This document shows positions 2,388-62,709 of a stretch of DNA of 64,000 nt, in pieces. Positions within the stretch are counted from its first letter, which is position 1, and the number at the start of each line of letters is the position of its first letter. Origin of the DNA: Verrucomicrobiota bacterium. Its GTDB lineage: Bacteria; Verrucomicrobiota; Verrucomicrobiia; Limisphaerales; JAXMHQ01. Under the pieces are notes generated by a model, which searched no databases, had not been told where the DNA came from, and saw nothing but the letters and a program-made list of their open reading frames with translations. The stretch lies in NCBI GenBank assembly GCA_046346665.1, contig JAXMHQ010000001.1, positions 131,896 through 195,895 of the forward strand, read 5' to 3'. The translations under genes and the position numbers were made by a program.

Positions 2388-3109
2388 TGAAGTTCGCGAT
2401 TATAGCCGATATTCACGCCAACCTGGACGCCTTCCAGGTTGTGCTCGAGGACATCAAGGCGCAAAAGTGCACCCACTACGCCTGCCTCGGCGACGTCGTC
2501 GGCTACAACGCCAACCCCAAGGAATGCCTCGAAATCGTCCGCTCCATGGGCATGCCCTGCGTCAAGGGCAACCACGACGAATACTGCTCCAGCAACACGG
2601 CGCTCGACGGCTTTAATCCCGCGGCCGCCGAAGCGGTCAACTGGACCCGGCAACAGCTCAGCGAGGAAGACCGTCAGTGGCTCCGCGACTTGAAATATGT
2701 CCGGATGGTCACCAGCTTTTCCATCGTTCACGCCACGCTCGACGGACCGCAGCGATGGGGTTACGTCTTCGACAAGCTCGCCGCCGCAGCCAGCTTCACC
2801 TACCAGAACACCGCCGTCTGCTTTTTCGGACACACCCACGTCCCGGTCGCCTTCATGCGCGACAACATGGTCCGCGGCGGCACCTACTCCAAGTTCAAGG
2901 TCGAACCGGGCAAGAAATATTTCGTCAACGTCGGCGCCGTCGGCCAGCCGCGCGACAATAATCCCAAATCCGCTTACGTCGTTTACGACATGGACGAGGG
3001 AACGATCGAACTGCGCCGGCTGGAATACGACATCGCGGCGGCCCAGAAAAAAATCCGCGACGCCGGCCTGCCGGAGCGCCTGGCGGAACGGCTCGCCTAC
3101 GGGCGCTGA
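2387..3109 (+). CDS. metallophosphoesterase family protein (YfcE/MJ0936-like)
   Basis: MKFAIIADIHAN...LGDVVGY...GNHDEY...GHTH metallophosphoesterase motifs. The start overlaps the acyP stop (ATGA). Confidence 0.85.
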   Translation: MKFAIIADIHANLDAFQVVLEDIKAQKCTHYACLGDVVGYNANPKECLEIVRSMGMPCVKGNHDEYCSSNTALDGFNPAAAEAVNWTRQQLSEEDRQWLRDLKYVRMVTSFSIVHATLDGPQRWGYVFDKLAAAASFTYQNTAVCFFGHTHVPVAFMRDNMVRGGTYSKFKVEPGKKYFVNVGAVGQPRDNNPKSAYVVYDMDEGTIELRRLEYDIAAAQKKIRDAGLPERLAERLAYGR

Positions 3110-4424: not shown

Positions 4425-5348
4425 ATGAAGATTCCAGCTTTCGTCCTGGCCTTCTGGCTGGCGCTAACCGCCGCCGCCACAGCCCAGGTCTCCGTCGAAG
4501 TGGTGCTCGACCAGGAACATTTCCTCCCCGGCGAAACCATGAACGTCGCCGTCCGCATCATCAATCGATCCGGCCAAACCCTCCAACTGGGCGCCGACCC
4601 CGACTGGCTCACGTTCGCGGTGGAATCCAAGGACGGTTATGTGATCCTGAAAAACGGGGATGTGCCCGTCGTGCAACCCTTCACGCTGGAATCCTCCAAG
4701 CGCGCCACGAAGCATGTCGACCTGGCCCCCTACTTCAACCTCACCAAGGAAGGCGCCTACACGGTTTCCGCGACGGTGAACATCAAGGAATGGAACCGCC
4801 AGTTCACCAGCCAGGCGCGCATGTTTGAAATCATCAGGGCCGCTTCGCTGCGGGACATTGAAGTGGGCGTGCCGCGCCCCGCGGGTTCGACCAACTCCGA
4901 ACCCCAGCTCCGGAAATACAGCCTGCTCCAGGCCAATTACCTCCGAAAAACCCTCGTGCTCTACGTCCAGATCACCGACGGCGCCGGCAAACTCAAACGC
5001 GTCTTCCCCATCGGCCCCATGATCTCGTTCGGACAACCCGAACCGCAGATCGACAAAGACAGCAATCTCCACATTCTCTACCAGAGCGGCCCGCGCCTGT
5101 TCCGCTATTTCATCATCACGCCCGACGGCGAAGTCATCGGGCGCCAGACCTACGAATTCACAAACCGCCCGCGGTTGAAGGTGGGAGAGAATTCGCAGAT
5201 CTCTGTGGAAGGCGGACGCCGCCGGATCACGGACGAGGATATCCCGTCGCCCGACGCCGCCGATGCAGCCGGGACAAATTCGCCCGCCCTTCCGGCCACG
5301 AACGCCGCTCCGGCTTCGGCGCCGCCTCCCGCACCAGCCGTTAAATAA
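4425..5348 (+). CDS. secreted hypothetical protein (signal peptide, Pro/Ala-rich tail)
   Basis: MKIPAFVLAFWLALTAAATAQ signal peptide, GC3-rich coding frame, C-terminal low-complexity PALPATNAAPASAPPPAPA. No family recognised. Confidence 0.6.
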   Translation: MKIPAFVLAFWLALTAAATAQVSVEVVLDQEHFLPGETMNVAVRIINRSGQTLQLGADPDWLTFAVESKDGYVILKNGDVPVVQPFTLESSKRATKHVDLAPYFNLTKEGAYTVSATVNIKEWNRQFTSQARMFEIIRAASLRDIEVGVPRPAGSTNSEPQLRKYSLLQANYLRKTLVLYVQITDGAGKLKRVFPIGPMISFGQPEPQIDKDSNLHILYQSGPRLFRYFIITPDGEVIGRQTYEFTNRPRLKVGENSQISVEGGRRRITDEDIPSPDAADAAGTNSPALPATNAAPASAPPPAPAVK

Positions 5349-5353
5349 AAAAA

Positions 5354-5390
5354 TCAGGGGAATAAAAGCGCGCGGCTCTTATTCCCCTGA
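5354..5390 (-). terminator. intrinsic terminator-like hairpin downstream of gmhB (also after the convergent 4425..5348 gene)
   Basis: tcaggggaataa-N13-ttattcccctga (12-bp perfect stem), followed on the minus strand by a T7 run. Confidence 0.75.
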
Positions 5391-5420
5391 CTTCAACTCC
5401 CGCTCCGGGCGTTGCCGGTT

Positions 5421-5966
5421 CTACACGGCCACAGCCGGTCCGGGCACCTGCAATTGGAGAATCTTCTCCACGGCGGCCGTGAAATCCGGCAGCAGGAAAT
5501 CGTGGTGCACCGAGCCCACCCACGGCGATTTCAGCAGCACCGAGGTGCAACCCGCCGCACGCGCCGCTTCGGCATCCTGCCACTTGTCGCTGATCACAAA
5601 CGAACGGTCCATGTCCAGGTGCCACTTGAATTTCGCCTCGATCAACATGCCAGGCTTCGGCTTGCGGCAGGAACAACGGTCCACCTCCGCGTGCGGACAC
5701 ATGAAAATATCGTCGATCGGCAGCGTCCGGCGCAGCGCCTGGTGCATCAAATCCAGTTCACGCCGGGAAATCGACCCGTCGGAAAGCCCCGGCTGATTCG
5801 TCGTCGCTATCAACACAAGACCGGCCGCCTTCAACTGCTTCAGCAGCGGGAGAATCTCCCGGTTGATCTCAAAATCCTTGAGGGTGGCGGGAGTGACTTG
5901 GTGTTGCCGTTCGGTTCGCACTTTATTCAGTACGCCGTCGCGCTCAATAAAAATGCCGAGCTTCAT
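5421..5966 (-). CDS. gmhB: D-glycero-D-manno-heptose 1,7-bisphosphate phosphatase-like HAD-IIIA hydrolase
   Basis: MKLGIFIERDGVLN (DxDGxL-type motif I variant), TNQPG, CPH....C.CRKPKPGM (GmhB zinc/Cys motif), SDKWQDAEAARAAG. The start is taken at the internal ATG 5966. Confidence 0.8.
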   Translation of the reverse strand: MKLGIFIERDGVLNKVRTERQHQVTPATLKDFEINREILPLLKQLKAAGLVLIATTNQPGLSDGSISRRELDLMHQALRRTLPIDDIFMCPHAEVDRCSCRKPKPGMLIEAKFKWHLDMDRSFVISDKWQDAEAARAAGCTSVLLKSPWVGSVHHDFLLPDFTAAVEKILQLQVPGPAVAV

Positions 5967-6205
5967 ATGCCGGGCGAGATAGCATAAACCCGGCCCAGCA
6001 ACGGCCCGGACCAAAAAAAGGAAAATTCACCCCGGGAAATCTGCAGGAGAAAACCCGCCAATCTCAGTTCTGAGACGCAAAACAACCCCGCCCCGCCCTT
6101 CCCCGCCCGCCCGCCGGCATTCCGACTTGTCCCGGTTTCGGGCAGGAATCGTCTCAATCGATAACGCCTAACACCGAGGCCACGGTGCAGCCACCCGAAA
6201 ACAAC

Positions 6206-10265: not shown

Positions 10266-10305
10266 CTGCAACCTTTGTGTCGTACGTACGACAGAAAGGT
10301 TGCAG
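10266..10305. repeat. 38-40 bp palindromic element, copy 1 (cbiM-cbiQ intercistronic gap)
   Basis: ctgcaacctttGtgtcgtac|gtacgacaGaaaggttgcag, a 17-19 bp stem with one central mismatch. Near-identical copy at 62672..62709. Confidence 0.9.
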
Positions 10306-11775: not shown

Positions 11776-11953
11776 GTCGAGGGTCGAAAGCCGAGAGTCG
11801 AGGGCAGGAGCTGGCGGCGGGTCGACGCGATCGTTGGATTCCAGGCGTACTGACAAGAGGGGCCTCCGCGATTTTACAATCGCGGCTACCGGTCAGGGTT
11901 GAGAACCATCCGCCACGTCGGGCCCTCGACTCTGGACCTTCGACTCTCGACTC
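11776..11953. repeat. word-periodic inverted repeat (GTCGAGGG family) with ~115-nt loop
   Basis: Left gtcgagggtcgaaagccgagagtcgagggc. Right gccctcgactctggaccttcgactctcgactc. The loop has an inner hairpin ccgcgatt-ttac-aatcgcgg. Confidence 0.8.
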
Positions 11954-15727: not shown

Positions 15728-15771
15728 GCCTTCGTTATACGTTTTCGCCCCAAAACTTAAAAGTATAAATC

Positions 15772-15850
15772 GTTAAAAGAGTTGAATGGTTGAATGGTTC
15801 AACCGTCCCGCGCGCCAGCTTTCAACCGTTCAACCGTTTAACAATTCAAC
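15772..15850. repeat. word-periodic hairpin (GTTGAATGGTT / AACCGTTCAAC family), copy upstream of the dUTPase gene
   Basis: gttgaatggttgaatggttcaaccg ... ctttcaaccgttcaaccgtttaacaattcaac. Confidence 0.75.
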
Positions 15851-18068: not shown

Positions 18069-18080
18069 CGATATCGAGCG

Positions 18081-18170
18081 GTTAAATGGTTAAAAGGGTT
18101 GAATGGTTGAATGGTTGATTCGCGCGAGCGGGTCGACCATTCAACTTTTTTAACCGTTCAACCATTCAAC
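18081..18170. repeat. word-periodic hairpin (GTTGAATGGTT family) after the sigma-factor stop
   Basis: gttaaatggttaaaagggttgaatggttgaatggttga ... gaccattcaacttttttaaccgttcaaccattcaac. Confidence 0.8.
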
Positions 18171-23220: not shown

Positions 23221-23237
23221 CGAGAGCGGGAGGATCG

Positions 23238-23335
23238 TTGGATTAATGGATTAATGGATTGATGGATTACTGGATAAAGCGCGATCGCCGCGTGGAGCCA
23301 AAAATCCAATCATCCATTTATCCAATAATCCAGCA
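23238..23335. repeat. word-periodic hairpin (GGATTAATGGATT family) after the RND pump stop
   Basis: ttggattaatggattaatggattgatggattactggataaa - loop - aaaatccaatcatccatttatccaataatccagca. Confidence 0.8.
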
Positions 23336-31407: not shown

Positions 31408-31475
31408 TGGGGTGTTGGAGTAATGGAGTATTGGATTACCGGGACCCATCACTCCACCACTCCACCACCCCATTC
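31408..31475. repeat. word-periodic hairpin (GGAGTAATGGAGT / ACTCCACCACTCC family) after the Gfo/Idh/MocA stop
   Basis: tggggtgttggagtaatggagtattggattacc ... ccatcactccaccactccaccaccccattcc (imperfect). Confidence 0.65.
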
Positions 31476-31527: not shown

Positions 31528-32226
31528 ATGAAGAGAACGATTTCTGATTCGTGGTTTTCGTGGTTGGGCTGCGTGATCATCGCGTGCTGGCTGGCGGCCG
31601 CCGCGACGGCGTCGGCGGACGGCACCAACCTGGTTCCGCTCAAACTCAAGCTCCCCTCGCCCGCCTTCGTGGGAACGCCCGTGAACCTGCAGATTGGACC
31701 GGAAGTCGAGCCAATGCCCAAGGGCCCGCGGCCGCCGTTCCTGGTGCCCGCCGGACTGACCAACCTGGCCCCCGCCGGCAAACTCACCTGCAGCGACACC
31801 AACGCCAGCCCGGATGCCCTCGCCAAAATCGTCGACGGCAACAAGGACCTGACGGACGGCAGCGTGGTGCTGATCCGGAAGGGCCCGCAGTATGTTCAGT
31901 TCGATTTAGGCGCCCCGGAGGAAATCTACGCGATCCTGATCTGGCACGCTTATGACGCGCCGAAAATTTACCGCGACGTGGTGGTCCAGGTGGCGGACGA
32001 CGCCGCGTTCACGCAGAATGTCCGGACGCTGTTCAACAACGATCGCGAGAACCACGCGGGCCGCGGCGCGGGCACGGACAAGCAGTATTTTGAGACCAAC
32101 GAGGGACGGCTCATTGACGCGAAGGGCCAGGTGGCGCAGTTCGTCCGCACGTATTCTCGCGGGAGCACCGAGAGCGCGTTGAACGAGTACACCGAAGTGG
32201 AGATTTACGGACGCCCGGCGAAATGA
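31528..32226 (+). CDS. secreted F5/8 type C (discoidin, galactose-binding-like) domain protein
   Basis: Signal peptide. KIVDGNKDL......PQYVQFDLG...IYAILIWH.......VVVQVADDAAF and the terminal EVEIYG follow the discoidin-domain pattern. Confidence 0.65.
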   Translation: MKRTISDSWFSWLGCVIIACWLAAAATASADGTNLVPLKLKLPSPAFVGTPVNLQIGPEVEPMPKGPRPPFLVPAGLTNLAPAGKLTCSDTNASPDALAKIVDGNKDLTDGSVVLIRKGPQYVQFDLGAPEEIYAILIWHAYDAPKIYRDVVVQVADDAAFTQNVRTLFNNDRENHAGRGAGTDKQYFETNEGRLIDAKGQVAQFVRTYSRGSTESALNEYTEVEIYGRPAK

Positions 32227-33728
32227 CCCGCGGCCTTCTTCCCGGGATCCTGCTGGCGGCGCTCATCGCCCTCCTCCTCCGCTGGCCCGGGCTGGAACAG
32301 AGGCCGTTCCATAACGACGAAGCCGTCAACGCGGTCAAGTTCGGCCAGCTCTGGAACGGGGACGGCTACCGCTACGATCCCAACGAACATCACGGCCCAG
32401 TCCTGGCCTATGCCACCTGCGCCTGGGCGGGCGCAACCGGCGGGGGACCGTTGTCCGGCTTCACGGAGGCGCGATTCCGGCAACTCACCGCGCTGTTTGG
32501 CGTCGCCCTGATTCTCCTGCTTCCGCTCCTCGCCGACGGCCTCGGTGCCGCGGCGGCGTTTTGGTCGGCTTGCCTGCTGGCCGTTTCGCCGGCCATGGTT
32601 TTCTACAGCCGCGATTACATCCATGAAATGCTGCTGGCCTTTTTCACTTTCCTGGCGCTGGCCGCAGCCTGGCGGTATTCATGCACACGCGGGATCGGCT
32701 GGGCAATCCTGGCCGGCGCGGCCGCCGGGCTCGCGCAGGCCACCAAGGAAACGTTTGTCCTGGCCGGAATCGCCGCCGCCGTCGCCTGGCTGCTGAACCG
32801 GTTCTGCGAATCCAGGATTTACCCGGCCCAGGCTGCCGGGCGGCGGCGGCTGAATCGGCGTCACCTGGCCGCCGGACTCGTTTCGGGACTGGTTGCGGCG
32901 GGAGTTCTTTACAGCTCGTTTTTCCAGCATCGGGCCGGAATCATCGATGCCTTCCGCGCTTTTGATCCGTGGATTCACCGCGCTGAAGGCGCCTCTCCAC
33001 ATGTTCACCCTGTCGGTTTCTATTTCTCCCGGCTGGCCTCCGGCGAAGGACTCGTGCTGCTGCTCGGCGCTGCCGGCGGCTGGTTCTGCCTGGCAGGCCG
33101 CCGCCCGCGATGCAGCCACGCGGGGTTTCTCAGGTTCCTGGCGTTTTACACGGCGATCCTGACGCTGATTTACTGCGCGATTCCCTACAAAACGCCCTGG
33201 TGCCTGGTGCAGTTCTACCTGGGCTGGGTTCTCCTGGCCGGCATCGGCGCAACCGCGCTGCTGGAACGAATCCCGGGAAGGGCACTGAAGATCCTCGCCA
33301 CGGTTGCCTTGGGCGCCGGGGTCCTGCAACTCGCAGCCCGATCCCGGCGCGCGGCGCTATCGGAAGATCTGCGGCGGAATCCTTATGCCTACGCAGAAAC
33401 CTCCCCGGACGTGCGGGAATTGGTCGCGGCCGTCGAACGCGTGGCCGCCGCCGCACCTCAACCGGCCGAGGTGCGCATCAACGTCGTGGCGCCCGCGGAT
33501 GATTACTGGCCTCTGCCCTGGTACCTGGGCTCGTTCCACGAGATCGGCTGGTGGCATGACCTGCCTGCAGACGCCCCGGCTCCTATCCAAATCCTGTCGC
33601 TGCGCCTTCAAAATCGACCCGGTGACAGTGCCTCCAACATCATCGCCGGGACTTTCGAGCTGCGCCCGGGCAACTTCTTCGAGCTTCAAGTGGAGACAAA
33701 CCTCTGGCAATCGCACCTCGCGCGCTGA
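32223..33728 (+). CDS. TIGR03663/GT39 (PMT_2, ArnT-like) family polytopic membrane glycosyltransferase-like protein
   Basis: LRWPGLEQRPFHNDEAVNAVKF......YRYDPNEHHGPVLAY matches the characteristic N-terminus of the TIGR03663 family, with multiple TM helices. The start overlaps the upstream stop (ATGA). Confidence 0.7.
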   Translation: MTRGLLPGILLAALIALLLRWPGLEQRPFHNDEAVNAVKFGQLWNGDGYRYDPNEHHGPVLAYATCAWAGATGGGPLSGFTEARFRQLTALFGVALILLLPLLADGLGAAAAFWSACLLAVSPAMVFYSRDYIHEMLLAFFTFLALAAAWRYSCTRGIGWAILAGAAAGLAQATKETFVLAGIAAAVAWLLNRFCESRIYPAQAAGRRRLNRRHLAAGLVSGLVAAGVLYSSFFQHRAGIIDAFRAFDPWIHRAEGASPHVHPVGFYFSRLASGEGLVLLLGAAGGWFCLAGRRPRCSHAGFLRFLAFYTAILTLIYCAIPYKTPWCLVQFYLGWVLLAGIGATALLERIPGRALKILATVALGAGVLQLAARSRRAALSEDLRRNPYAYAETSPDVRELVAAVERVAAAAPQPAEVRINVVAPADDYWPLPWYLGSFHEIGWWHDLPADAPAPIQILSLRLQNRPGDSASNIIAGTFELRPGNFFELQVETNLWQSHLAR

Positions 33729-33925: not shown

Positions 33926-34016
33926 CGCAGGTAGGGACGCCGCGCTGCGGCGTCCGCGGTCGGCGCAGCGCGCCGACCCTACCTTTTGCGGCTACGACAT
34001 TTCTTGAGCCGCTCTA
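33926..34016 (+). repeat. 91-bp structured repeat, copy 1 (100% identical to 55537..55627)
   Basis: cgcaggtagggacgccgcgctgcggcgtccgcggtcggcgcagcgcgccgaccctaccttttgcggctacgacatttcttgagccgctcta, compared base by base with the second copy. Confidence 0.95.
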
Positions 34017-34610
34017 GGAGAGCTGATTCGCAATGAAGGCGGCGCACTCGGCGGCGTGGGTCATGGAGATCAGGTGTCCGCCTTCCAGGGCCAGATCCGG
34101 TGCGGGCGGACAGGGAATGATGCGGTCCTTCCGTCCGTGGAGCCGGTAACAGGGAGTGGACGAGGAGTGCAGTCCTTTCCATTGGAACACAGCGTGGCAC
34201 ATTGCCCGGACAAAATCGGTGTCGCTGTCGGCAAACATCAGGGTGAAATCGTGTGGCAAATGGCGCGCGGCGCGACGCAGGGTTTTCCAGGGCGTCACCG
34301 CGGCCAACGGATGGAGCAAGCTGAAGAATCGGTTGATTTCCTGTCGGTGCGTGGCGCTGCCGACGAGGAACAGGGCGCGCAGATTCCGGATCCGGGCGAT
34401 CTCACACGCGACCATGCCGCCCAGCGAAGCGCCGATGACAGTATCCTGATCCTGGATGCCGAAGTGTTCCACCACCTGACGGGCCAGCGCGGGCAGGTCG
34501 CGTTCTCCCCGGTAAGGCGGCCAGTTATGGGCCGCGAAGGACGGGAGCGATTCCCAGGGGCGCGGGAACATCCGCCGATCCGCGCCCATGCCGGGGAGCG
34601 CGTGAATCAT
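34014..34610 (-). CDS. alpha/beta hydrolase fold protein
   Basis: MIHALPGMGAD N-terminus and the nucleophile elbow GASLGGMVA. Confidence 0.65.
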   Translation of the reverse strand: MIHALPGMGADRRMFPRPWESLPSFAAHNWPPYRGERDLPALARQVVEHFGIQDQDTVIGASLGGMVACEIARIRNLRALFLVGSATHRQEINRFFSLLHPLAAVTPWKTLRRAARHLPHDFTLMFADSDTDFVRAMCHAVFQWKGLHSSSTPCYRLHGRKDRIIPCPPAPDLALEGGHLISMTHAAECAAFIANQLS

Positions 34611-46580: not shown

Positions 46581-46726
46581 TGCTCATCCAAAGTGCGCTT
46601 CGAAAAATCCTATCAGAACTGTTCGGCATGACTTCGAAAAAAGCTTAGCTTTAATTGCCCAAGGCTCGCCATTTTTTGACCAGTCGAGCGGTGAACCCCG
46701 GGAGGCGGGATGGGGAGCGAAGGGGC

Positions 46727-46802
46727 GGATTAATGGATGAATGGATTCCTGGATTCAGGATGCCCAATCCAACAATCCAATTATCCAGCGATCCAACAAT
46801 CC
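46727..46802. repeat. word-periodic hairpin (GGATTAATGGATT family) in the ccoI-glgC divergent gap
   Basis: ggattaatggatgaatggattcctggattcag ... caatccaacaatccaattatccagcgatccaacaatcc. Confidence 0.75.
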
Positions 46803-46898: not shown

Positions 46899-48206
46899 AT
46901 GTCACAGACAGGGCGGCAGACCATCAACACGAGCAACGTGCTTTCGGTGATCATGGGCGGCGGACAGGGCACGCGGCTGTTCCCGCTCACCAAGGAGCGG
47001 TCCAAGCCCGCGGTGCCGCTGGCGGGCAAATACCGGCTGGTCGACATCCCGATTTCCAACTGCATCAATTCCGGCCTGCGCCGCATCTACCTGCTCACCC
47101 AGTTCAATTCCGCCTCGCTGCACCGCCACATTTCCCAGTCGTACAAGTTCGATCATTTCACCGGCGGTTTCGTGGAGATCCTGGCGGCGGAGCAGACGAT
47201 GACGGACAATTCCTGGTACCAGGGCACGGCCGACGCGGTGCGGAAAAACCTGATTCATTTTCTGAACCACGATTTCGATTACCTGCTGATCCTGAGCGGC
47301 GACCAATTGTATCACATGGATTTCCGGCGGATTATCGCGCAGCACCAGGAGACGGGGGCGGACATCACCGTGGCGACCATCCCCGTGTCGCGGCGCGAAT
47401 CGGAATCGCTGGGCATCATGCAAATCGATGCCGAACGGCGGATCACGCGGTTTGTGGAGAAGCCGAAGGACCCGGCGGTGCAGGATTCCCTTCGGCTGAC
47501 GCCGGACTGGCTGGAGCGGCTGGGGATTGAGGCGGGCAAGGAGTGTTTCCTGGCGTCGATGGGCATCTACGTGTTCAACCGGGATGTTGTCCGCAAGCTC
47601 CTGGACAACAACCTGACGGATTTCGGCAAGCACATCATCCCGGGCGCGATCGGGACGCAGCGCGTGTTCTCGTTTGTGTTCCAGGGTTACTGGGAGGATA
47701 TCGGGACGATCCGGTCGTTTTTCGAAGCCAACCTCGACGTCACGTCGGAGCTGCCGCGGTTTAATTTCTTCGACATGGGCGCGCCGATCTTCAGCCGGCC
47801 GCGGTTCCTGCCGGGCTCAAAAATCAACAGCGCGCAGGTGGACCACGCGGTGATTTCCGACGGCTGCATCATCAATCATTCGCGCATTTCGCACAGCATC
47901 GTGGGCGTGCGCAGCATCGTGGGCGCCGGGACCGAACTGAACCGCGTCATCCTGCTGGGCTGCGATTATTATGAATCGGCCGAGTCGATCGCCGCCAATG
48001 AACAGGCGGGCCGGCCGCGGATCGGGGTGGGGATGAACACGCGCATTGAAAACGCGATCATCGACAAAAATGCGCGCATCGGGGACAACGTGACCATTTC
48101 GCCCGCCGGCAAGCCCGAACAGGTGGATCACCCGCTGTATTACATCCGCGACGGCATTGTAATCATCCCCAAGAGCGGCGTCGTCCCGCACGGCACGGTC
48201 ATTTGA
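46899..48206 (+). CDS. glgC: glucose-1-phosphate adenylyltransferase
   Basis: VIMGGGQGTRLFPLTKERSKPAVPLAGKYRLVDIPISNCINSG, WYQGTADAV, and the left-handed beta-helix C-terminus. ATG 46899; upstream ORF-track residues are encoded by a repeat. Confidence 0.95.
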   Translation: MSQTGRQTINTSNVLSVIMGGGQGTRLFPLTKERSKPAVPLAGKYRLVDIPISNCINSGLRRIYLLTQFNSASLHRHISQSYKFDHFTGGFVEILAAEQTMTDNSWYQGTADAVRKNLIHFLNHDFDYLLILSGDQLYHMDFRRIIAQHQETGADITVATIPVSRRESESLGIMQIDAERRITRFVEKPKDPAVQDSLRLTPDWLERLGIEAGKECFLASMGIYVFNRDVVRKLLDNNLTDFGKHIIPGAIGTQRVFSFVFQGYWEDIGTIRSFFEANLDVTSELPRFNFFDMGAPIFSRPRFLPGSKINSAQVDHAVISDGCIINHSRISHSIVGVRSIVGAGTELNRVILLGCDYYESAESIAANEQAGRPRIGVGMNTRIENAIIDKNARIGDNVTISPAGKPEQVDHPLYYIRDGIVIIPKSGVVPHGTVI

Positions 48207-48216
48207 CCGCGAAGTT

Positions 48217-48247
48217 CTTTTCACCACGAAGGCGCGAAGCGCACGAA
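48217..48247 (+). repeat. 31-bp direct repeat, copy 1 (orphan left arm, CACGAAG family) just after the glgC stop
   Basis: ttttcaccacgaaggcgcgaagcgcacgaag is 29/31 identical to 48799..48829. Confidence 0.9.
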
Positions 48248-48255
48248 GTTCAGAA

Positions 48256-48687
48256 TTACATCTGTTCCGGGCGGGCTTCCGGATTTTTCCGCGTGTGCCC
48301 CGTGTCCAGGATCAGGCGGGTGATGCCGTCTTTCAGAAGGCTGACATTGAAATTCAGCAAGAGCCCGACCCGAACATTCGCGAGCTTCATATAGGTTAGC
48401 AACTGGGCTTTGTGAATTGGATCAATGTTTGCGACGGATTTAAGCTCCACGATGATACCTCGATCCACCATCAAATCCAGCCGGTAGCCGCAATCGATGG
48501 CCATCCCCTTGTAGCAAACAGGCAATGGCACTTGCGCCTGAAATGGAATTTTTTGCAAAGCGAGTTCGTGCGCGAGGCAGTGTTCGTAAGCGGATTCCAG
48601 CAAACCCGGCCCGAGGGCGCGATGCACTTCTATGGCGCAGCCGATCAACCGGTTCGAGAGTTCTTCAAACTGAATGGTTCCCTGCAT
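48256..48687 (-). CDS. GxxExxY protein (PDDEXK_3 / PD-(D/E)XK nuclease-like family)
   Basis: IGCAIEVHRALGPGLLESAYEHCLAHEL carries the family-defining G..E..Y motif. D...VELK and QLLTYMK blocks follow. Lower GC than its neighbours. Confidence 0.85.
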   Translation of the reverse strand: MQGTIQFEELSNRLIGCAIEVHRALGPGLLESAYEHCLAHELALQKIPFQAQVPLPVCYKGMAIDCGYRLDLMVDRGIIVELKSVANIDPIHKAQLLTYMKLANVRVGLLLNFNVSLLKDGITRLILDTGHTRKNPEARPEQM

Positions 48688-48798
48688 GCTATTCCCTTTC
48701 CTTTATGAACCACGAGAATTCGAGATTCAACCTTGCATGAGAGAATAAAGCCGCGGGTAGGACAATGGCAGTCCAACCTCACAGAAACAGGGAAGACA

Positions 48799-48911
48799 TT
48801 TTTACCACGCAGGCGCGAAGCGCACGAAGATTTGTTCAGGGATAGCCTAACAAGAAAAACTTCGCGCTCTTCGCGCCTTCGTGGTGAACAAAGTCTTCGC
48901 CCTTCGTGGTC
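48799..48911. repeat. 31-bp direct repeat copy 2 plus its complementary arm (intact CACGAAG-family hairpin abutting the CBM48 gene stop)
   Basis: tttttaccacgcaggcgcgaagcgcacgaag - 30-nt loop - cttcgcgctcttcgcgccttcgtggtgaa, followed by a partial extra word gtcttcgcccttcgtggtc. Confidence 0.85.
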
Positions 48912-50512: not shown

Positions 50513-50626
50513 AAAGTGTCGTTCTGTTTCACGCGCCGCACGGGCGCATATCCGGAACATTTTAGGCGGACCCGGTCAAAAGGAAACAAAAAACACAGGA
50601 CTCACCTCGAAGCAGGGAAGGATTTA

Positions 50627-50881
50627 TCAACCACGAAGACACGAAGAACACGAAGGTTTTGGGGGGGCAGATTGTTTCGATGTTGGGACCGGATGAGGCC
50701 GGCCCTCCAATCGATCCGCTATCGACGATGCAAAGTGAAATGCCTGGAAAAGACCAATCGCGGAAATCAGCCGCAGACTCAGCAAGCGCGCAAAATTCGA
50801 TGTGCACGGAATGAACGAGCAGCCTGGTCCGGCTTTCCCCCGAAAAAGACTTCGCGTTCTCCGCGTCTTCGTGGTGAAAAA
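50627..50881. repeat. word-periodic inverted repeat (CACGAAG family) with ~168-nt lower-GC loop, between the sigma-54 activator gene and fba
   Basis: Left tcaaccacgaagacacgaagaacacgaaggttttggggggg. Right cccccgaaaaagacttcgcgttctccgcgtcttcgtggtgaaaaa. Confidence 0.8.
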
Positions 50882-52364: not shown

Positions 52365-52439
52365 CGGCCGACATTAACGGAATTTCTTCCCGGCGGGCAA
52401 GCTTTTCAACCGCGCGACGCAACAACACGAACCGGCTCT

Positions 52440-52466
52440 CACCACGAAGACACGAAGGACGCGAAG
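52440..52466. repeat. orphan left-type arm of the CACGAAG family upstream of the sigma-54 activator gene
   Basis: caccacgaagacacgaaggacgcgaag. No complementary arm lies nearby. It is complementary (~22/27) to the right arm at 50850..50876 on the other side of the gene. Confidence 0.75.
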
Positions 52467-52554
52467 AAATCTCTTTTGAGGGAAGTGCTGCTCCCGATTT
52501 TGCTTTTGCGCGGCTGCCGGATTTCCGACGCCGCGCCCGATCTCGCGAAGGCGG

Positions 52555-52588
52555 CCATTCCGCACTCCGCGTTCCGCATTCCGCATTT
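52555..52588. repeat. orphan right-type arm of the AATGCGG family abutting the pilC stop
   Basis: ccattccgcactccgcgttccgcattccgcattt. About 29/31 identical to the reverse complement of 55418..55450, 2.8 kb away. Confidence 0.8.
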
Positions 52589-53798
52589 AGCGCGCCTGGT
52601 TGATGATGTCCGCCATTTTAAAGATGGGCAGGAACATACAGATCACCATGCCGCCGATGACGATGCCGAGGCCGACGATCAGGATGGGCTCGATCAGCGA
52701 GGTCAGGCCGGACAGGGTGGTTTCGATTTCCTCGTCCAGGAAGTCGGAGATGCGTTCCAGCATGTTGTCGATCTTGCCGGTTTGTTCGCCGGCCGTGATC
52801 ATGCGGATGATCATGCTGGGGAAAATGGGATGCTTGCTGAGCGCGGTGGAAATGCTTTCGCCGCGTTCGATGTCGGCGGAGGCGTCCTTGATGGCCTTCT
52901 CCATCACCACGTTGCCGACAGTCTGGGAAACGATCTGCAGCACTTCGAGGATCGGCACGCCGGAGCGGATCAGCGACGCCAGGGTGCGGGTGAATCGTGC
53001 AAGGCAGATCTTGTGGGCAATCATGCCGAAGATCGGGAGCTTGATGCGGCGCGAATCCCAGAACCAGCGGCCGGGCTTGGTCTTGATGAAGGCGAACCAG
53101 CCGTAAACGATGCCGGCGCCGGCGAGAACAAACAGGAGGATGAAGCGCTTGACGATTTCGCTCAGGTCGATGAGGAACTGGGTCGGACCGGGCAGCTTGG
53201 CGCCGAATCCCTGGTAAATTTCACCGAACACCGGCACGACCTTGATGAGCAGGAACGTGGTGATCAGGATAGCCACGATGGTGACGACCGTGGGATACAT
53301 CATCGCCGATTTGACCTTCTTGCGCAGGCGCGCAGCGTTTTCGAGGTAAATGGCCAGGCGCGCCATGATTTCGGCGAGCAAACCGCCCTTTTCACCGGCG
53401 GACACCATGGAATAATACAGGCGGTCGAAAACCTTCGGATGCTTCTGCAGCGCCTCGGAAAAGCTGTCGCCGGCTTCCACGCGGGCGCAAATGTCGCGAA
53501 TGACATCGCGCATCGCCTTGTTCGTGGTCTGTTCGGCGAGCGCCTGGAGCGACTGAACCATCGCAAGACCGGCGTCGATCATCGTGGCGAGTTGCCGGGT
53601 GAAAATGACCTGGTCGGCAAGGCTGACCCTGCCGCCGCTGGTGCGTCCTTTCTTGCCGACCTTTTCCTGGATGGAAACCACCAGGAGATTGCGGTTGAGC
53701 AGCGCCGTGATGGCCGCCTGCTCGGTGGCCGCTTCGACGGAGCTGCGGATCTCTCGGCCGGAGGCCGTCTCCCGCGCAATATACAAGTATGAAGGCAT
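52587..53798 (-). CDS. pilC: type II secretion system F-family / type IV pilus platform protein (PilC/GspF-like)
   Basis: 403 aa with duplicated T2SSF domains (LATMIDAGL..., LASLIRSGVPI...), a 3-TM layout, and the typical Y.A.....G N-terminus. Confidence 0.9.
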   Translation of the reverse strand: MPSYLYIARETASGREIRSSVEAATEQAAITALLNRNLLVVSIQEKVGKKGRTSGGRVSLADQVIFTRQLATMIDAGLAMVQSLQALAEQTTNKAMRDVIRDICARVEAGDSFSEALQKHPKVFDRLYYSMVSAGEKGGLLAEIMARLAIYLENAARLRKKVKSAMMYPTVVTIVAILITTFLLIKVVPVFGEIYQGFGAKLPGPTQFLIDLSEIVKRFILLFVLAGAGIVYGWFAFIKTKPGRWFWDSRRIKLPIFGMIAHKICLARFTRTLASLIRSGVPILEVLQIVSQTVGNVVMEKAIKDASADIERGESISTALSKHPIFPSMIIRMITAGEQTGKIDNMLERISDFLDEEIETTLSGLTSLIEPILIVGLGIVIGGMVICMFLPIFKMADIINQAR

Positions 53799-54139: not shown

Positions 54140-55417
54140 ATGTCGGAGGAACGCATGAGAGTGAACAAATGGACGCTGGGCCTCGCCGCCGCGGGCGTCG
54201 TCAGCCTGGGATCCGCGGTCCAGGCCGAGGAAACTTCAAACACCGTCCTCACCGGCCTGTCCTCAACCACCTTGAGCGGCTACGTCGATACGTCCGCCAT
54301 GTGGAACTTCGGCACCGGCAACGCCAACCCCGTCCCGGTCCGGTTCAACCAGGGCAAACAGGACGGATTCAACCTCAACGTCGTCCAGCTCTCCCTCGCC
54401 CGGCCCCTGTCCGAAAATAACTGGGCCGCCGGATACCGCGTCGACCTCTGGATGGGACCCGACGCCGCCCAGCTCGACACTGCCAGTCTCCAGTCCGGTT
54501 TCACCCAGGGCGATTTAGCCATCCGCCAGGCCTACGTCGCCCTCCGCACCCCCCTCGGCAACGACATCGAATGGAAGATCGGCGTTTTTGACAGCATCAT
54601 CGGCTACGAATCCGTCGCCTCCCCGAGCGATCCCAATTACACCCGCTCCTACGGCAACACCCTCGAACCCACCTCGAACACGGGCCTGCTGGCGTCCTAC
54701 CGCTTCTGCGAGGAATTCAACATCTCCGCCGGCATCGCCAATACCGTCGGACCTAACATCAACCAGCGCGCATTCAACACCCCCGGCGTCCCGCCGCTCA
54801 CCAATCCCCAGGCCGAGTCCTTCAAGACTTACATGGGATCGTTCACGGTGGTCGCCCCCGACAGCCTCGGATTCCTGGCGGGATCCAGCCTCTACGGCGG
54901 CATCGTGAATGGATTCAATGACGCGGTGAACGAAACCGCGTATCAGAACAACAGCACCAGCTATTACCTCGGCGCCACCTTCGTCACCCCCGTCAACGGG
55001 CTCCGCTTCGGCACCGCCTTCGACTGGCTCCATATCCATAACTGGTCCGAAGTCCTCGCCTCCGCCCCCGTCCCGCTTTTCGGCGGCGACGGCAATAGCT
55101 GGTCCCTGGGACTCTACGGCTCCCTGCAGGCTACGGAAGCCTTCAGCATCCATCTCCGCGGCGAATACGTGAACGACAACGCCGGATTCTTCTTCGGCCC
55201 CTTCGGCGAAGACCAGACCGGCAACGTCGTGGAACGCGCCCAGGTGTTCGAAGTGACCACCACCGCCCAATACGATCTCTGGAAAAACGTGATCAGCCGC
55301 GCGGAATTCCGCTGGGATCACATCGAACACGGCAACGCCTTCGGCGGCACCATCCCCGGCTCCCCCATCTACGCCAACGCCTACATGCTGGCCGCAAATA
55401 TCATCTACCAGTTCTGA
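54140..55417 (+). CDS. outer-membrane beta-barrel porin (BBP2/OmpL-like), paralog 1
   Basis: Signal peptide ending AVQA, alternating beta-strand pattern, C-terminal aromatic (IIYQF). About 45% identical by eye to 55804..57075. Alternative start at ATG 54155. Confidence 0.75.
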   Translation: MSEERMRVNKWTLGLAAAGVVSLGSAVQAEETSNTVLTGLSSTTLSGYVDTSAMWNFGTGNANPVPVRFNQGKQDGFNLNVVQLSLARPLSENNWAAGYRVDLWMGPDAAQLDTASLQSGFTQGDLAIRQAYVALRTPLGNDIEWKIGVFDSIIGYESVASPSDPNYTRSYGNTLEPTSNTGLLASYRFCEEFNISAGIANTVGPNINQRAFNTPGVPPLTNPQAESFKTYMGSFTVVAPDSLGFLAGSSLYGGIVNGFNDAVNETAYQNNSTSYYLGATFVTPVNGLRFGTAFDWLHIHNWSEVLASAPVPLFGGDGNSWSLGLYGSLQATEAFSIHLRGEYVNDNAGFFFGPFGEDQTGNVVERAQVFEVTTTAQYDLWKNVISRAEFRWDHIEHGNAFGGTIPGSPIYANAYMLAANIIYQF

Positions 55418-55698
55418 GGAATGCGGAATGCGGAGTGCGGAGTGCGGAATCCTGGCGGAATGCGGGGTTCACGGATATAACCATCCTTTGATCCATTGAT
55501 GCCGCTCCATTATAGCGGTTTAACATAAACCGTAGCCGCAGGTAGGGACGCCGCGCTGCGGCGTCCGCGGTCGGCGCAGCGCGCCGACCCTACCTTTTGC
55601 GGCTACGACATTTCTTGAGCCGCTCTAAGGACAAGAACGAGCAGGGCTCCCCTGTTGCGCCGCCAGGATTCCGCACTCCGCACTCCGCACTCCGCGTT
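55418..55698. repeat. word-periodic inverted repeat (GAATGCGG/GAGTGCGG family) abutting the porin-1 stop, with a ~200-nt loop carrying the 91-bp repeat
   Basis: Left ggaatgcggaatgcggagtgcggagtgcggaatcctggcg. Right cgccaggattccgcactccgcactccgcactccgcgtt. Confidence 0.85.
55537..55627 (+). repeat. 91-bp structured repeat, copy 2 (fuller copy; outer stem extends to 55531..55600)
   Basis: Identical to 33926..34016. Here cgtagccgca (55531-55540) additionally pairs with tgcggctacg downstream of the ggtaggg...ccctacc stem. Confidence 0.95.
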
Positions 55699-55803: not shown

Positions 55804-57075
55804 TTAGAACATGTAGATGATGTTCAGAGTCAGAGTTTCGGCGTTGGCCTTGCTCGGATTGCCAGGGGTCGCCGGAGTCGTGCTGAAATCGGCGGCCACC
55901 GTGCCACCGAAGGGCTTGTCATCCGTCAAGCAATGATCCCAGCGGAATTCCACGCGGCTGATCACGTTCTTCCACAGGGAATAATCCAGCGTTTCGGTGA
56001 GCGACATGAGCTGGTTGCAGCTCCCCTGCGAGACGTAGCCGAACGAGCCGTTCTCGCCGTTGGCATAGGAGCCGTTGCTGCCCCAACCGAAGTCGAGGCG
56101 GCTGCCGCTCTTCAGTTTCTCGGTGATCTGCCACATCAAGTAGGTGCCCAGGGCATTCGCGTAGGAGTTCTGGAACACGCTGCTGGTGGTCAGGTCGTAG
56201 GCCACACCCAGGCTCAGGCCCGTGATCGGCAACGGCGTCGTGCCGCCGATATACAGGTTGCGCTGGTTGTAATCCGTGCCGCCGCTCGAAGCGCCGCCGC
56301 CCGACACGTTCGGAATCACGGCCGGGAAATGACCGCCGTCCGTCCAGCCGGCCGAGAGCGTCGCGCCCTTCATGAACCCGAAACTCTCGGGAGCCGTGAA
56401 CGAAGCCATCACCAGGTAGGCCTTCTTGGATTCGACACCGTTCTTCACGTCGACCTGGTTGTTGTAACCGGCCTGGTTGCCGATGCCCGCCTGCAGGGCG
56501 AAGCAGTCAGTCACCTTGTAGGTGCCCGCAATGCCCGTGTGCGCGGAGGATTCAATGTAGAACCCGTAGGAACGGCTGAAATTCGGATCCTTGTAGGTGT
56601 CGTAGGATTCGTAGCCGTTGAACGTTCCGAATTGGCCCATGTGCAGCTCCAGGCCGTTGCCAATCGGGACGCGCAGGTTCACATACGCCTCGTTAAAGGC
56701 GAAATCCGTCGTGCCGGACGAGGCAAAAATCCCCGTGCCGCGCTGCGCAGCGCCGGGCCCCATCAGCATCTGGAAATGATAACCCGAGGCCCACTGGGAA
56801 TCGTCCAGCGGCTTGTCCAGCGTCAGGCTCACCACGTCAAGGTTGAAGCCGTCCATCATGGTCGGACCATCATACACGCGGCCCGGCATGTTCGCGTTGC
56901 CGGTTCCCATGTTCCAGATCGCGGAGGTATCCACATAACCGCTCAGCGTCGTGGCGGAAAGGGATGTCAGCACGGAATTCGGTTTCGCAGCCGGAGCCTC
57001 ATCAGCCTGTGCCAAAGCAGGCGCACTGATCAGGCCGGCGCTCAACAGGACTTGTGTCCATTTACTCATGTTCAT
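55804..57075 (-). CDS. outer-membrane beta-barrel porin (BBP2/OmpL-like), paralog 2
   Basis: Signal peptide ending ALAQA. Shared blocks with paralog 1 (TTLSGYVDTSA.WN.GTGNAN, DGFNL.VV.L.L..PL, LWKNVISR.EFRWDH). C-terminal IIYMF. Confidence 0.75.
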   Translation of the reverse strand: MNMSKWTQVLLSAGLISAPALAQADEAPAAKPNSVLTSLSATTLSGYVDTSAIWNMGTGNANMPGRVYDGPTMMDGFNLDVVSLTLDKPLDDSQWASGYHFQMLMGPGAAQRGTGIFASSGTTDFAFNEAYVNLRVPIGNGLELHMGQFGTFNGYESYDTYKDPNFSRSYGFYIESSAHTGIAGTYKVTDCFALQAGIGNQAGYNNQVDVKNGVESKKAYLVMASFTAPESFGFMKGATLSAGWTDGGHFPAVIPNVSGGGASSGGTDYNQRNLYIGGTTPLPITGLSLGVAYDLTTSSVFQNSYANALGTYLMWQITEKLKSGSRLDFGWGSNGSYANGENGSFGYVSQGSCNQLMSLTETLDYSLWKNVISRVEFRWDHCLTDDKPFGGTVAADFSTTPATPGNPSKANAETLTLNIIYMF

Positions 57076-62645: not shown

Positions 62646-62671
62646 CCCCCCGCGCAACCTCGTTCCCCGGC

Positions 62672-62709
62672 TACAACCTTTTTGTCGTACGTACGACACA
62701 AAGGTTGCA
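62672..62709. repeat. 38-bp palindromic element, copy 2 (urtD-urtE intercistronic gap)
   Basis: tacaaccttttTtgtcgtac|gtacgacaCaaaggttgca. Same core as 10266..10305, with the mismatch at the same stem position. Confidence 0.9.

Follow-up and report, generated by a model that had tools for sequence, protein, structure and literature searches.

A perfect 91-bp repeat in a Verrucomicrobiota genome carries a REP doublet of a family that brackets RAYT genes in related genomes

The DNA analyzed here is a 64-kb stretch (64,000 nucleotides) of a Verrucomicrobiota genome, referred to below as the window. Two segments of it, 33926-34016 (copy 1) and 55537-55627 (copy 2), are 100% identical over 91 bp in direct orientation, 21.6 kb apart (repeat family D5 in the window). 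The initial annotation had reported this exact direct repeat, and its length, orientation and distance were all reproduced. Copy 2 sits in the 3' spacer shared by two convergent porin genes (Table 1). Copy 1 sits between two convergent ORFs, one at 32223-33728 (+) and an alpha/beta-hydrolase ORF at 34014-34610 (-), and its final CTA is the TAG stop codon of the hydrolase. The hydrolase ORF encodes 198 aa, equal to the annotation of the source MAG, and its homologues are about 198-200 aa long with full coverage. The gene is of normal length, and copy 1 therefore abuts it without truncating it.

Within the 91 bp lies a 54-nt core, GGTAGGG...CCCTACC, which occurs exactly twice in the window compared to 0 occurrences in 100 shuffles. 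Around the core, copy 2 has a left and a right outer arm. The right outer arm is identical in copy 1, and the left outer arm was not found there. Copy 1 had been described as 5'-truncated. Its left arm is absent or strongly diverged, with only a faint resemblance remaining (GAGCCTTA--CGCA versus GAGCCGTAGCCGC). That the two copies are perfectly identical is consistent with recent copying, in line with the earlier proposal of recent spread or gene conversion; as the identity involves just two copies, it could equally have originated by gene conversion or a small duplication.

Copy 2 is built of nested palindromes, all of which were recovered: the outer stem, the inner hairpins and the 10-bp extension. 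The core contains two 9-bp hairpins (I10 and I11) within an imperfect long palindrome with 28-nt arms at 86% complementarity (I2). The weakly similar terminal inverted sequences noticed earlier correspond to the 31-nt outer arms (I3, 74% complementarity), which include the perfect 10-bp stem CGTAGCCGCA/TGCGGCTACG. All of this lies in the loop of a hairpin of period-8 words (I1, 39-nt arms at 95% complementarity with 201 nt between), also as previously noticed. The 128-nt unit has a predicted DNA fold of -44.6 kcal/mol (z = -6.8 versus shuffles) and a predicted RNA fold of -78.6 kcal/mol (z = -8.1 versus shuffles).

The inner hairpins themselves need a different description. The initial annotation drew them as 5-bp stems with 7-nt loops; they are 9-bp stems with 3-nt loops (GCT and AGC). 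On the plus strand, the first half of the core reads GTAG followed directly by the perfect palindrome GTAGGGACGCCGC-GCT-GCGGCGTCC. On the minus strand, the other half reads GTAG followed directly by GTAGGGTCGGCGC-GCT-GCGCCGACC, again a perfect palindrome. Each monomer in both copies and on both strands thus consists of GTAG, a perfect 9-bp stem and a 3-nt loop. The mutual complementarity of the loops, which had been read as switch-like, is present, but a switch is not supported: the complementarity is an automatic outcome of the core being two inverted copies of one monomer.

REP sequences are defined by a 5' GTAG tag with a GC-rich palindrome behind it, and REP doublets (REPINs or BIMEs) by two such units in inverted orientation. 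The 54-bp core matches this anatomy and is a REPIN made of two inverted REP monomers. Work on the Stenotrophomonas REPtron (PMC8266576) dealt with REPs of this kind, in which GTAG stands directly before a perfect palindrome with a 3-nt loop. The repeat accordingly matches a known repeat family, an outcome that the initial annotation had named as one that would refute its reading; REP doublets are established as small, non-coding mobile DNA. The earlier description as a MITE-like mobile unit holds as far as the element is small, non-coding and dispersed; it is very probably a RAYT-linked REP doublet rather than a MITE of the TIR/DDE type. The window contains two such doublets (four monomers). 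One further GTAG hairpin, at 11889, is unrelated to the REP monomers.

Table 1. Coordinates of the features discussed; positions refer to the window unless a locus (L number) is given.
Feature	Position	Strand	Remarks
BBP2-type outer-membrane porin gene, upstream of copy 2	54140..55417	+	PF07642; 100% match to a Verrucomicrobiota MAG protein
Paralogous BBP2 porin gene, convergent	55804..57075	-	
Period-8 word hairpin, left arm	55420..55458	.	I1; context, outside the element
Left outer arm of ~120-bp composite (TTATAGCGGTTTAA ... CCGTAGCCGCA)	55510..55540	.	copy 2 only; I3; conserved in L123
REPIN core, copy 2: GGTAGGG-hairpin-GC-hairpin-CCCTACC	55541..55594	.	exact 54-mer; arms I2, I10, I11; folds
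REP monomer A (GTAGGGACGCCGCGCTGCGGCGTCC)	55542..55566	+	GTAG, then 9-bp stem, GCT loop
REP monomer B (GTAGGGTCGGCGCGCTGCGCCGACC)	55569..55593	-	inverted relative to A, other stem type (heterodimer)
Right outer arm of composite, copy 2 (TGCGGCTACG ACATTTC TTGAGCCGCTCTAA)	55598..55628	.	I3
Period-8 word hairpin, right arm	55660..55698	.	I1; context, outside the element
REPIN core, copy 1	33930..33983	.	monomers 33931-33955 (+), 33958-33982 (-)
Right outer arm, copy 1	33984..34016	.	identical to copy 2; last 3 bases CTA
Word hairpins in the window	55420-55458 / 55660-55698, 15758-15807, 18075-18124, 23232-23284, 31409-31445, 46719-46763, 48206-48891, 50613-50881, 52424-52589		
RAYT gene, 151 aa	L037 5515-5970		NF047646 match, flanked by REP doublets
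Four-hairpin REPIN subfamily	L017 184-281, L024 685-782, L077, L078 5621-5718, L080 4798-4894, L106 1347-1445		

The 25-mer of monomer A is found identically in dozens of Verrucomicrobiota MAG loci. We scanned one genome per species for the exact pattern GTAGGGNCGSCGCGCTGCGSCGNCC and extracted 8-kb stretches around matches; this pattern-biased scan gave more than 116 stretches from at least 77 species-level assemblies. Among the matches listed, 68 of the 77 assemblies are labelled as Verrucomicrobiota lineages, comprising Chthoniobacterales, Ca. Udaeobacter, Verrucomicrobiia/-ae, 'Spartobacteria' and subdivision 3. The remaining ones, again among the matches listed, are one Lentisphaerae assembly, three labelled only 'bacterium' and five with other labels, which are probably mis-binned contigs. 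Several MAGs contribute four to six separate loci each among the matches listed.

The Verrucomicrobiota REP was also seen on contigs attributed to Ca. Acidoferrum (L044, L108), Ca. Sulfotelmatobacter (L104, L107), Bifidobacterium or Bifidobacteriaceae (L089, L094, L097) and Hyphomicrobiales (L046), and on an IMG/VR viral contig (L001). These off-phylum and 'viral' contigs are most likely mis-binned or misclassified Verrucomicrobiota DNA, and the repeat could therefore serve as a contamination marker.

The loci listed contain 237 monomers, and 96 pairs of them form doublets with GTAG facing outward (G-GTAGGG...CCCTAC-C). Of these doublets, 35 have no spacer between the two monomers, 6 have a 2-nt spacer like the window copies, and the others have spacers of 20-122 nt. 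Outside the doublets, sequence is unrelated between loci. For 54 monomers whose stems were free of the search pattern, the GTAGGG tag and the GCGCTGC centre are constant, and Watson-Crick pairs make up 89-98% at each of the five free stem positions. The pair type switches at three of these positions (A-T/T-A; G-C/A-T; G-C/C-G/T-A). The monomer hairpin is maintained by compensatory change. Monomers are also depleted from potential coding sequence: 34% lie deep in a frame that runs for 150 aa or more without a stop, compared to 82% of random 25-mers, as counted on stop-free frames rather than real gene calls. All-against-all clustering of ORFs from 117 REP-bearing loci found no dominant neighbouring gene family, and an 'ORF family' near REPs at four loci was rejected as merely translated REPIN.

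Nearly all doublets pair two different stem types. In the combined set of loci L002-L131 and the window, 109 of 112 doublets are heterodimers, with pairs such as ACGCC/ACGGC, ACGCC/TCGGC, ACATC/ACGGC and others. Homodimers account for 3 of 112, compared to about 21% expected by random pairing, and for 0 of the 51 short-spacer doublets. This excess suggests selection against perfect long palindromes. It also weakens, across the family, the switch-like alternative long hairpin that had been proposed for the core. One REPIN subfamily has a spacer of about 48 nt in which two more hairpins are conserved, gcgccgcg-ttca-gcggcgc and ccgcccgc-tgcttc-gcgggcgg, so that the unit has four hairpins in all (Table 1).

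In other bacteria, REPs are paired with REP-associated tyrosine transposases (RAYTs), which are HUH/Y1 enzymes. A tblastn search found no RAYT in the 64-kb window. Using E. coli RayT as a query against about 0.85 Mb of REP-bearing loci, we found an ORF at locus L037 that matches with a phmmer E-value of 1.6e-13. This ORF scores 104.6 bits on the NCBIfam equivalog model NF047646, 'REP-associated tyrosine transposase' (cut-off 80), but only 17.9 bits on the IS200 model, with a weak PF01797 match. The HUH histidines (P-x-H-x-H) and the catalytic tyrosine (DYIxxNPV, Y-x3-NPV) are invariant, E. coli RayT included. REP doublets at 5445-5494 and 5967-6016 bracket the L037 gene. RAYT genes or remnants also adjoin doublets at loci L012, L074 and L007. 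The L074 remnant (5134-5362, minus strand) is a degraded RAYT that retains residues 1-46 and 115-149 and has lost the middle; it lies between REP doublets at 4939-5110 and 5405-5529, a case of RAYT decay with the REPINs remaining. Locus L072, with two inverted REPs 1.9 kb apart, has no RAYT there.

As a test independent of the repeat, we used the L037 protein as a query against a protein database. At E <= 1e-10 there were 1105 homologues, and many of them carry the name RayT or REP-associated tyrosine transposase in their source records. Four homologues (L119-L122, gene from position 3001 onward) were picked by protein similarity and long contigs only. All four have doublets of the window's REP family on both sides. 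Together with L037, all five loci share the gene order DoxX-DLH-RAYT, and at all five the TAG stop codon of the RAYT gene is the TAG of the downstream GTAGGG repeat (...CCN TGG TAG GG...). A RAYT bracketed by doublets is the REPtron arrangement, and it is present in these relatives. RAYTs are described as behaving like single-copy, vertically inherited genes (PMC5581495), and the conserved synteny fits this behaviour.

The identity between the two window copies continues beyond the core for 33 bp on the right and 4 bp on the left, and these stretches do not belong to the pan-family element. A metagenome scan with the core/arm junction CCCTACCTTTTGCGGCTACG gave no match. The same kind of scan with the exact 52-nt core gave nine contigs, eight with unrelated flanks and one (L123) with the ~120-bp composite of core and outer arms. 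The L123 composite is 95% identical to the window's over 99 bp; from the outside in, its parts are the 14-nt ends, the 7-nt linker, a stem of 9-10 bp and the core. It comes from a soil metagenome and sits in an unrelated convergent spacer, adjoining a moaE-like ORF. Because L123 carries the whole composite elsewhere, the ~120-bp composite is itself a dispersed unit in the sub-lineage. A comparable case is MAG AV2, in which a ~180-bp unit (a four-hairpin-subfamily REPIN with ~40-nt flanks, 91% identical) is found on three contigs. Lineage-specific extended units recur.

A relative with 81% identity (L133) has another arrangement at the orthologous porin spacer. There, the word hairpin (2508-2585) is uninterrupted, and its loop is short, at about 30 nt. 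Next to the hairpin rather than within it, at 2404-2479, lies a different palindrome of 86 nt bounded by GTAG (GTAGCCGCCGACG...CGTCGGCAGCTAC; DNA fold z = -3.6), similar at its ends to the outer arms of the window composite but with a different centre. This comparison suggests that nested insertions may have produced the window arrangement. As an empty-site comparison, L133 is too rearranged to give a precise site, and the nearest relatives of the hydrolase next to copy 1 are at most 59% identical.

Copy 2 has three layers: the REPIN core at the apex of a GTAG-bounded palindrome (CCGTAGCCGC.../...GCGGCTACG), which is itself in the loop of the terminator-like period-8 word hairpin. One idea that we regard as unlikely is that the replicating unit in this lineage is this three-layer palindrome, with REPINs of the family preferentially inserting into single-stranded apical loops of existing hairpins and the composites then spreading as a whole. 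Hints in its favour are the composite at the unrelated L123 locus and the L133 spacer with its separate GTAG palindrome and uninterrupted word hairpin. Flank stems of at least 6 bp anchored at the junction occur at 8 of 95 doublets compared to about 1.5 expected, and three of the eight are copies within one MAG. If true, apical-loop insertion would build composite elements and remodel the 3' ends of genes.

Word hairpins like the one around copy 2, with arms made of tandem 8-nt 'words' (GGAATGCG, CACGAAG-, GGATTAAT, GGTTGAAT and others), follow genes at several places in the window (Table 1). Hairpins of other words occur on other Verrucomicrobiota contigs: L092 (gtgacgag), L109 (cttcgtg), L079 (acggatga) and L133 (ggagtaat, 2508-2585). 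They look like a lineage-wide terminator-like feature with fast-evolving words. A Logan contig from an independent short-read assembly of the same organism (SRR14234082_218595, L132) breaks at about window position 55437, 20 nt past the porin stop codon. This break is inside the word-hairpin/REPIN region and fits assembly breaks caused by repeats. Separately, a 39-nt near-perfect palindrome, CTGCAACCTTTGTGTCGTACGTACGACAGAAAGGTTGCA, occurs at 10266-10304 and 62671-62709 with 92% identity, 52 kb apart (D14), and is unrelated to the REP family. A possible second REP family in the window, suggested by GTAGCCGC (9 occurrences versus 1.4 expected), was rejected because the extra occurrences are not palindromic elements.

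We consider it very probable that the repeat as a whole is explained by a REPIN core of a soil-Verrucomicrobiota REP family, presumably copied by a RAYT and carried here within a lineage-specific composite. Alternatively, the repeat could encode a structured small RNA, or a riboswitch-like RNA able to adopt two folds, kept for its function as RNA; the small-RNA gene family raised by the initial annotation belongs here. The very stable predicted RNA fold and the stem covariation across many genomes would be expected from such an RNA. However, no Rfam family reaches its gathering score anywhere in the window, and the matches at an E-value threshold are generic long-hairpin (miRNA-precursor) and CRISPR-DR models far below their cut-offs. 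No promoter-like site was found in a scan near either copy, the element can point either way with respect to the genes beside it, and the spacers range from 0 to 122 nt and are not conserved in sequence. The stems have few non-Watson-Crick cells and no strand-specific G-U excess, suggesting that conservation is equal on both strands. The long hairpin needed as the second fold is disfavoured by the 109 heterodimers among 112 doublets, and the element brackets a gene of a transposase family. We give this explanation very little chance of being correct.

A host element acting at 3' ends, such as a terminator or an mRNA-stabilizing hairpin, kept identical by selection and not mobile, would explain why both window copies and the L123 composite are in convergent 3' spacers. 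A terminator scan flags GGTCGGCGCAGCGCGCCGACC followed by CTACCTTTTG on the plus strand in both copies, and REPs are reported to act on mRNA 3' ends in other bacteria (PMC3733652). Against this, the T-run is specific to the composite, short and offset, and the bases past CCCTACC vary at other loci. Predicted terminators per region are not clearly above shuffles (2 versus a mean of 0.6; 1 versus 0.5), copy 2 is already inside a long terminator-like word hairpin, and the association with RAYT is left unexplained. As a full account this is very improbable; as a secondary role of a REPIN, a 3'-end function is possible and compatible. A further alternative is a classical MITE, meaning a deletion derivative of an insertion sequence with a DDE transposase, defined by terminal inverted repeats and target-site duplications, that merely happens to hold REP-like hairpins. 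The ~120-bp unit does have 31-nt imperfect inverted ends (I3, 74%), and the composite is also found at a third, unrelated locus in another organism (L123). But flanking direct repeats are not apparent where copy 2 or the L123 unit seems to end, searches of the window and of about 1 Mb of related loci brought up no insertion sequence whose ends match, and the part conserved family-wide is the inner GTAG doublet rather than the ends. We judge a MITE origin highly improbable.

For the REPIN explanation, anatomy, family distribution, covariation, extragenic bias and the REPtron of relatives are observed, and the copying mechanism is inferred from the biochemistry of the E. coli, S. maltophilia and Marinomonas REPtrons (PMC8266576). 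By analogy with these, RAYT would bind the folded, single-stranded REP hairpin, with the GTAG tag helping it to select a nearby cleavage site. The doublet would be copied or moved via a single-stranded DNA intermediate, the REPs behaving as non-autonomous elements, and the expected outcome is a population of identical or near-identical copies in intergenic 3' spacers. In the source genome, the copied unit would be the lineage-specific ~120-bp composite, with the REPIN core between outer arms that contain GTAG. The two copies identical over 91 bp may be recent products of REPIN copying, or of gene conversion between copies, with the left arm of copy 1 lost or replaced. Any effect on flanking mRNAs, by hairpin stabilization of 3' ends or by termination, would be secondary.

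REPs, REPINs and RAYTs are well known. An odd perfect repeat here is explained as ordinary REPIN biology and so does not need to be pursued as a new RNA. The analysis documents a REP family outside the Proteobacteria whose tag and loop are constant in at least 77 species-level genomes and whose RAYT is single-copy and syntenic. Such a family is useful for comparison where REPIN-RAYT pairs are proposed to be old partners of the bacterial chromosome that are passed on vertically. REPINs may also help explain assembly breaks in MAGs of soil Verrucomicrobiota.

A literature search for the monomer sequence returned only unrelated primer matches in the searchable literature. Close published parallels from the phylum are the GTAG-17 to GTAG-20 repeats, GTAG-tagged palindromes of the verrucomicrobium Opitutus terrae (Di Nocera et al. 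2013, PMC3733652). Many of these are reported there as dimers with 1-2 bp spacers, and REPtrons are reported in hosts of GTAG repeats. O. terrae and the window share GTAG-tagged palindromes in a Verrucomicrobiota genome and dimers with short spacers. The O. terrae genome is called 'highly enriched' in repeats in the same text, compared to two doublets in the 64 kb of the window. The peptides given there for intragenic REPs (VGPALAAG and GTGVPPV, for example) do not match the translation of the window monomer (VGTPRCGV). Judged by these peptides, the O. terrae REPs are therefore probably a different family.

IS200/IS605 elements resemble the REP/RAYT system in having a related transposase fold (the weak PF01797 match), subterminal hairpins preceded by a guide tetranucleotide and single-stranded DNA chemistry. 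They differ in that the L037 protein scores far higher as a RAYT than as an IS200 transposase (104.6 versus 17.9 bits), its gene is single-copy and syntenic, and the REP hairpins are dispersed alone in the chromosome.

The system closely resembles the REPtrons of Gammaproteobacteria that have perfect-palindrome REPs, such as REPtron Sm of Stenotrophomonas maltophilia (PMC8266576) and the Pseudomonas REPINs (PMC3116915). Like these, it has GTAG immediately before a perfect, GC-rich palindrome whose loop is 3 nt long, inverted doublets in extragenic 3' spacers and a single RAYT gene, with HUH motif and catalytic tyrosine, bracketed by its own REPs in conserved synteny, as vertical inheritance would produce. 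Unlike them, it belongs to the phylum Verrucomicrobiota and has the REP sequence GTAGGG-N5-GCGCTGC-N5-CC. Its tag and loop are constant over at least 77 species-level genomes, nearly all of its doublets are heterodimers, and in the source genome its core is nested in extra lineage-specific arms. Two points are mildly notable: how widely the tag and loop are conserved among species, and that the source genome carries the core in a nested composite.
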